Shown here piece after piece: positions 51,642 to 51,736 of a stretch of DNA of 64,000 nucleotides. The notes beneath the pieces were generated by a model, which was not told the DNA's origin, made no database searches, and was given only the letters and a program-made list of their open reading frames with translations. Made by a program: the position numbers and the translations under genes. Origin of the DNA: a virus. The stretch spans positions 96,001 to 160,000 of the IMG/VR virus record IMGVR_UViG_3300029319_000003. One strand, given 5' to 3'. The first letter of the stretch is position 1; the number at the start of each line of letters is the position of its first letter.

Positions 51642-51736
51642 TGGTAGGGCGAGTGGGATTCGAACCCACGATCTTGCGCTTATCAGACGCTAAACCGGAT
51701 ATAAGCCGGTTGCCTTAACCGCTTGGCTATCGCCCC
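51642..51736 (-). tRNA. Non-canonical tRNA with UAU (Ile) anticodon and 24-nt variable region
   Basis: 95 nt; D-arm GCC AAGCGGTTAA GGC; anticodon arm ACCGG CTTATAT CCGGT; V region TTAGCGTCTGATAAGCGCAAGATC; A73, CCA. Confidence 0.85.

Follow-up and report, generated by a model that had tools for sequence, protein, structure and literature searches.

How does a phage transfer RNA (tRNA) with the anticodon UAU come to carry a second hairpin whose loop is that of an isoleucine (Ile) anticodon arm, and what may that hairpin do? The question is raised by a 95-nucleotide (nt) gene in IMG/VR virus record IMGVR_UViG_3300029319_000003, positions 96,001 to 160,000 of which (64,000 nt, the whole stretch analyzed) are called the window below and are numbered from their first letter. 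Most bacteria read AUA, a rare codon for Ile, only after the essential enzyme TilS rewrites a CAU anticodon, AUA being the sole sense codon treated in this way; UAU, the alternative that suggests itself, is rejected by ordinary IleRS (isoleucyl-tRNA synthetase). The gene, referred to as tRNA(UAU), is interpreted here from its own sequence and that of its relatives as an Ile-accepting AUA reader that would not need TilS, its second arm (arm 2) presenting Ile anticodon signals to IleRS. For this reading as a whole we see about even chances, and far better ones for its core, an AUA reader that accepts Ile.

A second anticodon-like hairpin, its family and its origin

The gene was located by ARAGORN at 51642-51736 on the minus strand and is matched by the Rfam tRNA model (RF00005) at 62.3 bits (gathering score, 29), which places it among the tRNAs; an earlier reading made from the letters alone (the sequence-only reading) had given its position, its anticodon and its 24-nt variable region exactly. 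Aligned to the Rfam model, all excess length of the gene is one 21-nt insertion in the variable region. Arm 2 is drawn by RNAfold as a tetraloop, GAUA, with CU/AG closing it and one U bulged out, and such a tetraloop had also been proposed earlier; the hairpin stands, and covariation among 58 relatives favors, in place of that fold, a stem of 4 base pairs (bp), GCGU/GCGC, under a 7-nt loop, CUGAUAA. Bacterial tRNA-Ile(GAU) has exactly this sequence as its anticodon loop, an identity that the sequence-only reading overlooked. The insert is a second anticodon-like hairpin, neither an ordinary class II arm nor an excisable piece. That it might be a small insert or intron removed from the transcript, as had been suggested, is barely credible: it does look inserted beside an ordinary variable loop, but in hundreds of genes the loop is kept and the stem shows paired changes, no bulge-helix-bulge motif lies at its borders in the gene sequence, and we know of no bacterial splicing route for such a piece.

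Viral contigs were scanned with the exact pattern of this gene's anticodon arm, which returned a dozen further tRNA(UAU) genes of 94-96 nt with the same layout. Three scans of viral contigs in which nothing but the UAU loop, a long spacing and the T loop was specified, so that the arm was free, gave 249 distinct candidates; a GAU-centred 7-nt hairpin loop on a stem of at least 3 bp is present in 212 of these (85%), as against 2 of 581 distinct Leu, Ser and Tyr tRNAs from the same loci with a GAU-centred loop in the long arm. The association of the GAU-centred arm with long-armed tRNA(UAU) is far beyond chance. It also holds in reverse: wherever a scan fixing only the arm-2 loop CAGAUUA and the T loop met a true hairpin, the arm before it was, with essentially no exception, YUUAUAN; rows with another anticodon were parser slips or unrelated tRNA-Arg anticodon arms. 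The two-arm layout, to which this gene conforms, consists of a UAU arm (arm 1), 2-6 nt, a hairpin with loop YNGAUNN, a variable loop of 5-6 nt and a T arm; the hairpin of about 19 nt ahead of an ordinary variable loop, first noticed here, is found throughout the family. CAGAUUA is the arm-2 loop of the main subtype, and CUGAUAA that of a rare one common to this gene, a viral contig (L207) and Actinomyces. The sequence-only reading had held that a long arm common in tRNA-Ile(UAU) would speak against its proposal; the arm is indeed a family trait, in which we see added interest and no refutation.

Conservation within the 212 members is uneven along arm 2. Loop position 1 is C or U, position 2 is A in 205, positions 3-5 are GAU in all 212, position 6 is variable and position 7 is A in 169; the stem has 4 bp in 161. 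Two to six unpaired bases precede the arm, and the tail behind it has 5 nt in 153 members and 6 nt in 54, as in a normal variable loop. In eight sequences read, the last base of the tail covaries with position 15 (G15 with C48, A15 with U48), a Levitt-type covariation suggesting that the tRNA core is ordinary. In an alignment of 58 diverse members all five helices covary (95.5% of cells paired, vs. 62% in shuffles and 32-50% with slid partners); pairing reaches 98.3% in the arm-2 helix, where compensatory change is seen at 4 of 4 pairs, and the same arm-2 loop sits on at least 17 different stems. A73 is invariant in this alignment (58/58); most members have a class I D stem of 4 bp, and this gene has 3 bp and an A.A mismatch. 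The acceptor stem of the gene has 7 bp and is topped by G1.U72, a pair found in 58% of two-arm genes, 36% of class I phage tRNA(UAU), 9% of tRNA-Ile(GAU) and 15% of other tRNAs. U33 and A37 are retained in arm 1, with YUUAUAN almost without exception in relatives fetched without constraining the loop; most arm-2 loops have lost both. Both anticodon-type arms of the family are under selection; arm 1 is fit for decoding, and in most members arm 2 is not.

Two special structures of arm 2 were considered and rejected: pairing of loop positions 2 and 6 into a GAU triloop, position 6 being free to vary beside A2; and a loop-loop kiss between the arms, for which UUAU/AUAA pairing is possible in this gene and is not conserved in the main subtype.

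The two-arm design is widespread in phages and present in a few bacteria. In a collection of cultured phages, a DNA search returned no close relatives, only generic tRNA matches; with a family member as query the only match was a 91-nt tRNA-Ile of Levilactobacillus phage ENFP1 (arm-2 loop CAGAUGG), annotated simply as tRNA-Ile. With the 95-nt gene as BLAST query, 6 of 8 significant matches in cultured phages are tRNA-Ile(GAU) genes of Streptomyces phages, at 90.7% over about 43 nt from arm 2 through the variable loop and T arm, and the significant relatives of the 3' half of the gene are tRNA-Ile(GAU) genes only. When tRNA-Ile(GAU) of a Streptomyces phage and of Actinomyces itself are aligned with two-arm genes (four-way alignment), a single 19-nt gap remains, and it corresponds to the UAU arm. 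These alignments point to descent of arm 2 from the anticodon arm of a tRNA-Ile(GAU), the UAU arm having been gained just before it.

Other unusual tRNA-like genes were seen in viral contigs. Among the 37 exceptions to the GAU-centred loop, 23 form a second odd tRNA(UAU)-like family with no D arm before the anticodon arm and a D-loop-like segment (GTAGNGG...GAAAAC) after it (viral loci such as L138, L160, L161, L163 and L169; mostly misread by ARAGORN). Long-armed tRNAs with a Ser-like D arm, G73 and the Trp anticodon CCA occur at L006:307-394, L093:6470-6554 (minus strand) and L121:5801-5889, on contigs that also carry two-arm tRNA(UAU). Viral loci L157, L160, L164, L196, L208 and L222 hold long-armed Asn, His, Lys, Arg, Ile(GAU), Met, Thr and Pro tRNAs of 85-93 nt; the arm loops on these normally class I tRNAs are short and mutually unrelated.

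Charging, decoding and the bacterial carriers

Determinants of E. coli IleRS are the anticodon, A73, C4-G69, the 12-23 pair and C29-G41, and t6A37 (N6-threonylcarbamoyladenosine at position 37) is a strong determinant for bacterial-type IleRS (PMC9976931). The anticodon UAU is charged poorly by E. coli IleRS, a restriction relieved by the change W905R (PMC3575796). The arm-2 equivalent of pair 29-41 is C-G in 201 of 212 members (95%), this gene included, and never G-C, and arm 1 has C-G there in 66 of 212; the corresponding figures are 63% for phage tRNA-Ile(GAU), 56% for class I tRNA(UAU) and 12% for other class I tRNAs. Since the neighboring arm-2 pairs 30-40 and 28-42 are free to change, the constraint concerns the 29-41 pair, and its orientation, specifically. 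In the body, U12-A23 is found in 70% of two-arm members, 83% of tRNA-Ile(GAU) and 41% of other tRNAs. By these counts the Ile signatures lie on arm 2 rather than on arm 1, and the body is Ile-like.

We propose that the gene specifies a functional elongator tRNA that would read AUA with an unmodified-type UAU on arm 1, and for which no lysidine, hence no TilS, would be needed. Arm 2, on this account the original GAU arm, has lost its decoding features in most members (A for U33, position 37 variable) and retains what IleRS reads, that is, G34-A35-U36 in a 7-nt loop together with the C29-G41 pair. With these signals it would stand in, before the host IleRS, for the UAU loop, which ordinary bacterial IleRS, with Trp at the wobble-stacking site, accepts poorly; arm 1 would then decode AUA on the ribosome. 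The two arms may stack alternatively under the D stem; since each has one native junction (position 26 before arm 1, the variable loop after arm 2), a switch of stacking is conceivable. The sequences show the gene, its family, the covariation, the conserved loop and stem pair, the homology to tRNA-Ile(GAU) and chromosomal use by Actinomyces without TilS; from these we infer that the tRNA accepts Ile, that IleRS reads arm 2 and that stacking switches between the arms. Such a division of labor, the arm with GAU and the C29-G41-type pair being read by IleRS and the UAU arm by the ribosome, perhaps through a swap of stacking, is put forward tentatively, as having somewhat less than an even chance.

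Bacterial carriers bear on the need for TilS. About 36 species of Actinomyces have the CUGAUAA subtype on the chromosome. Three Actinomyces carriers gave no TilS match, and 14 of 14 control genomes did (10 of 14 above the cut-off). In a sample of 141 genomes of the family to which Actinomyces belongs, TilS was above the cut-off in 128, and the seven two-arm carriers are seven of the eight genomes without a TilS-like match beyond a 24.6-bit fragment. A loose pattern search of five Actinomyces carriers found no class I UAU-like gene, the two-arm form being the only UAU-type gene found. The Actinomyces pattern supports reading of AUA without TilS. TilS-independent AUA decoding, as envisaged by the sequence-only reading, is accordingly kept as plausible, with a phage and with Actinomyces carriers that lack TilS. 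The main subtype, CAGAUUA, occurs in Pyrinomonadaceae and Blastocatellia (Acidobacteria), within arrays of 20-27 tRNA genes in 8 kilobases (L381, L390, L393, L396, L415, L419) in which the two-arm tRNA(UAU) often adjoins tRNA-Ile(GAU). The IleRS of the Pyrinomonadaceae carriers is of type 1 and keeps the wobble-stacking Trp, in a motif C(E/D)RCWNYS aligned to W890 of S. aureus.

Several observations weigh against recognition of arm 2 by IleRS. Most members have U, G or C in arm 2 where t6A37 would be, so that this modification cannot form there. The hairpin stands in the variable position and not at the anticodon site expected by IleRS, which obliges one to assume a rearrangement. Class I tRNA(UAU) lacking a second arm is common in phage contigs (68 distinct in one scan), which means that the arm is not generally required, and position 38 is not clearly more relaxed in arm 1 (A38 in 57% of the 68 class I UAU tRNAs vs. 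43% of 76 arm-1 loops). The near-invariant A at arm-2 loop position 2 is not predicted by mimicry for IleRS, and a GAU triplet by itself has a chance of a few percent of coinciding with an Ile anticodon. Arm 2 follows the co-resident tRNA-Ile(GAU) only weakly, both in its stem (1.86 vs. 1.41 identical pairs of 4) and at pair 29-41 (53 vs. 43 of 83). The Pyrinomonadaceae and Blastocatellia carriers also have TilS. The anticorrelation with TilS rests on one clade and so amounts to a single evolutionary event; moreover, Actinomyces IleRS is of type 2 (eukaryote-like, with a DUF5915 domain and no zinc-finger C-terminus) in genomes with and without TilS, which made the test at W905 inapplicable there. 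Type 2 IleRS may accept UAU unaided (PMC3575796), and the Actinomyces case therefore says little about the role of arm 2.

Some of the same observations would suit an Ile AUA decoder whose arm 2 serves a partner other than IleRS, with GAU and the C-G pair conserved for that partner. The arm could stabilize the fold, keep U34 off AUG, guide or block a modification enzyme, or shield the tRNA from host anticodon nucleases. Besides the armless class I tRNA(UAU) genes and the A at loop position 2 (205/212), the uniformity of arm 2, greater than that of real tRNA-Ile(GAU) stems (95% vs. 63% C-G), fits such a partner, as do the long arms on many class I tRNAs in some phage contigs, by which more general uses become possible. 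The second arm is, however, tied to the UAU anticodon alone, and the arms on other phage tRNAs have unrelated tetraloops. To our knowledge, no other protein reads G34-A35-U36 together with C29-G41. The conserved elements, moreover, coincide with the published IleRS determinants (PMC9976931). We hold another partner to be possible and rather unlikely.

The intact loop of this particular gene invites a further explanation, in which CUGAUAA members are double-headed: either arm would stack as the anticodon arm, and the tRNA would read AUU and AUC as well as AUA. Here the arm-2 loop has the full sequence of a functioning Ile(GAU) loop, U33 and A37 included; each arm has its own native junction; and no tRNA-Ile(GAU) is found among the phage's own tRNAs. 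Across the family, by contrast, A replaces U33 in 205 of 212 relatives and most lack a purine at 37, so that decoding by such loops is not expected; the arm-2 stem has 4 bp in 161 of 212; and a tRNA-Ile(GAU) of its own is often found beside the two-arm gene in relatives. For the family double decoding is improbable, for this CUGAUAA member it is conceivable, and the double-headed explanation in general is given little probability.

A display of the GAU loop on an exposed arm could also mark a tRNA-shaped decoy or regulator that titrates, for example, IleRS, a nuclease directed at tRNA-Ile or an ileS T-box. Phages do hold several odd tRNA-like RNAs, including an Asp-type one of 98 nt close to this gene. 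Arm 1 nevertheless keeps every decoding feature (U33, UAU, A37); the CCA end, A73 and T loop are canonical; and Actinomyces without TilS need an AUA reader, no other UAU gene having been found there. A decoy is improbable, if a shade less so than the double-headed tRNA.

Charging by leucyl-tRNA synthetase (LeuRS), or by the tyrosyl or seryl enzyme (TyrRS, SerRS), of a class II-like tRNA whatever its anticodon, with recoding of AUA or AUG, was raised in part by the sequence-only reading and is now considered very improbable. A73 and the long arm would suit it, as would the D stem of this member. The family as a whole argues otherwise, with a consensus like that of tRNA-Ile (A73, U12-A23, mostly a class I 4-bp D stem); the significant BLAST relatives of this gene's 3' half are tRNA-Ile(GAU) genes; a full variable loop follows the arm, unlike class II arms; and the Levitt pair is G15-C48, where the phage's own tRNA-Leu has A15-U48. 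A35 is unsuited to TyrRS. With 297 AUA codons spread through the phage genes, and with the two-arm gene as the only UAU-type gene found in Actinomyces, recoding would be costly.

The tRNAs that such a molecule would resemble differ in kind. In class II tRNAs and nematode nev-tRNA(UAU) (PMC3333845), too, a further stem-loop separates the anticodon arm from the T arm, and nev-tRNA(UAU) shares with this gene an anticodon other than those of Leu, Ser and Tyr. Leucylation of nev-tRNA(UAU) is a point in favor of recoding, but nev-tRNA is a nuclear gene with a Leu-type body and is confined to nematodes; the present gene comes from a phage and has an Ile-like class I body. The anticodon UAU is outside the class II set (Leu, Ser, Tyr). 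A class II arm replaces the variable loop, leaving 0-2 unpaired bases on each side, whereas arm 2 is followed by 5-6 (207/212) and preceded by 2-6, and its loop sequence, unlike that of class II arms and nev-tRNA, is conserved. Allo-tRNAs (Mukai et al. 2017, reviewed in PMC7609411) are also bacterial or phage-borne and long-armed, with UAU among their commonest anticodons, a point in favor of recoding; their acceptor/T stems are 8/4 or 9/3 and they have Ser identity with G73. The arrangement in this gene is 7/5, kept across the 58-member alignment, with A73, so that it is neither an allo-tRNA nor a Ser-type tRNA.

The gene in its phage

The source record (184,187 bp) is rated complete by CheckV and represents a large tailed phage with a baseplate wedge protein, a G+C content of 45.7% and 179 of 192 long open reading frames on the minus strand. 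The tRNA(UAU) gene belongs to a minus-strand RNA cluster comprising tRNA-Thr(UGU), tRNA-Leu(CAA), tRNA-Arg(UCU), tRNA-Asn(GUU), the 98-nt Asp-type tRNA, tRNA(UAU) and a transfer-messenger RNA (tmRNA). In the phage genome no TilS-type PP-loop domain and no class I synthetase, hence no IleRS, were found; charging must therefore rely on the host IleRS. The 297 AUA codons make up 9.7% of Ile codons, or 5.4 per thousand codons. The demand for AUA is minor but real, like that for the ACA, UUG and AGA codons of the neighboring tRNAs. Features and coordinates are collected in Table 1. A consensus scan found no terminator-like site between the promoter-like site upstream of the tmRNA and tRNA(UAU), so these two RNAs may be co-transcribed, which the sequence makes plausible.

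Table 1 Features of the tRNA(UAU) gene and of its surroundings; positions are those of the window
Feature	Position	Strand	Description	Basis
tRNA(UAU), whole gene	51642-51736	minus	95 nt, anticodon UAU; CCA encoded at 51642-51644, discriminator A73 at 51645	ARAGORN, Rfam
D arm	51712-51727	minus	3-bp stem GCC/GGC and A13.A22 mismatch, loop AGCGGUUA	
Arm 1, decoding anticodon arm	51694-51710	minus	5-bp stem ACCGG/CCGGU, loop CUUAUAU; UAU at 51701-51703, U33 and A37	
Variable region	51670-51693	minus	24 nt	sequence layout
Arm 2, second anticodon-like hairpin	51676-51690	minus	4-bp stem GCGU/GCGC, 7-nt loop CUGAUAA (51680-51686); GAU at 51682-51684	covariation
Arm 2, extended	51674-51693	minus	extendable by UU/AA across a bulged A	
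Variable-loop remnant	51670-51675	minus	AAGAUC, ordinary; final base C48 in Levitt pair with G15	
T arm	51653-51669	minus	GUGGG / UUCGAAU / CCCAC, canonical	
tmRNA	52012-52346	minus	one-piece (unpermuted), 132 bits, tag ANNNTHFDAVALAA	
Promoter-like site	52362-52390	minus	TTGACA-17-TATATT, 11 of 12 matches, directly upstream of the tmRNA	consensus scan only
tRNA-like gene, Asp-type	50958-51055	minus	98 nt	
Open reading frame	51081-51641	plus	186 codons	
Open reading frame	51746-52000	minus	84 codons	
Open reading frame	9531-24026	minus	4831 codons	

Four neighbors deserve a description of their own. The 98-nt tRNA-like gene has an Asp anticodon loop (CUGUCUC, with U37), G73, a Leu/Ser-like D arm and a variable arm of 8 bp, and is matched weakly by the Rfam tRNA-Sec model (22.7 bits). 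The 186-codon frame, which runs on the minority strand, takes up precisely the interval between two tRNA genes of the minus strand and contains the HPD motif of J-domains (ITHPDLNPDG), its Pfam DnaJ score of 25.1 bits falling just below the cut-off. The 84-codon frame between the tmRNA and tRNA(UAU) has a hydrophobic segment and no family match; with 2 AUA among 7 Ile codons it is not an AUA-rich leader. The frame of 4831 codons is a single one and lies near the baseplate wedge gene.

Known solutions for AUA and the meaning of a two-arm tRNA

No account of a tRNA with a second arm bearing GAU emerged from a literature search that took in reviews of tRNA identity and of non-canonical tRNAs. The nearest precedent for its proposed function is the TilS-independent tRNA-Ile2(UAU) of Mycoplasma mobile, known also from Bifidobacterium and Neorickettsia (Taniguchi et al. 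2013, PMC3575796). Common to both are UAU, A37 and A73, reading of AUA without lysidine (proposed here) and a clade lacking TilS (here Actinomyces). The M. mobile type is, however, a class I tRNA with a short variable loop of 4-5 nt, as opposed to 24 nt with a conserved hairpin, and in it the enzyme is adapted (Arg865 in M. mobile IleRS, or a type 2 IleRS), whereas here it is the tRNA that carries a GAU arm; the two-arm design, unlike the M. mobile type, also occurs where IleRS keeps its Trp. In a tilS suppressor of Bacillus subtilis, G34 of tRNA-Ile1 is changed to U (discussed in PMC3575796; Kohrer et al., PMC3919564), and a tRNA-Ile(GAU) body is likewise made into a UAU reader of AUA; that change is a point mutation in a single arm, and in the two-arm genes the GAU arm is kept and a separate UAU arm added.

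Functional hairpins of comparable design exist elsewhere. Engineered aptamer-tagged tRNAs (PMC7590224) also carry a functional hairpin in the variable arm that is compatible with translation; they are artificial, built on an allo-tRNA chassis and without a link to identity. Mimics of an anticodon arm can be read by a synthetase away from the anticodon position of a tRNA: the thrS mRNA operator of E. coli is an anticodon-arm mimic bound by ThrRS (threonyl-tRNA synthetase). There, too, a hairpin copies the cognate anticodon loop, and reading by the synthetase is what we propose for arm 2; the thrS mimic lies in an mRNA and represses translation, whereas the present one lies inside a tRNA and would promote charging.

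For annotation, the family matters in that tRNA finders miss two-arm genes or label them plain "tRNA-Ile". With Actinomyces genomes searched and found without TilS (the three carriers and four more in the 141-genome family sample), TilS looks less universally essential. Should the proposed function of arm 2 be correct, the two-arm tRNA would be a third solution for AUA, beside lysidine and an adapted IleRS, and the first case in which recognition of the anticodon by a synthetase is uncoupled from the decoding anticodon by an internal mimic. It would offer a natural precedent for separating tRNA identity from decoding, which is an aim of genetic-code engineering. Phages would gain reading of AUA that is independent of TilS and of the host, and a design portable between hosts would explain its spread in phages and in tRNA arrays.

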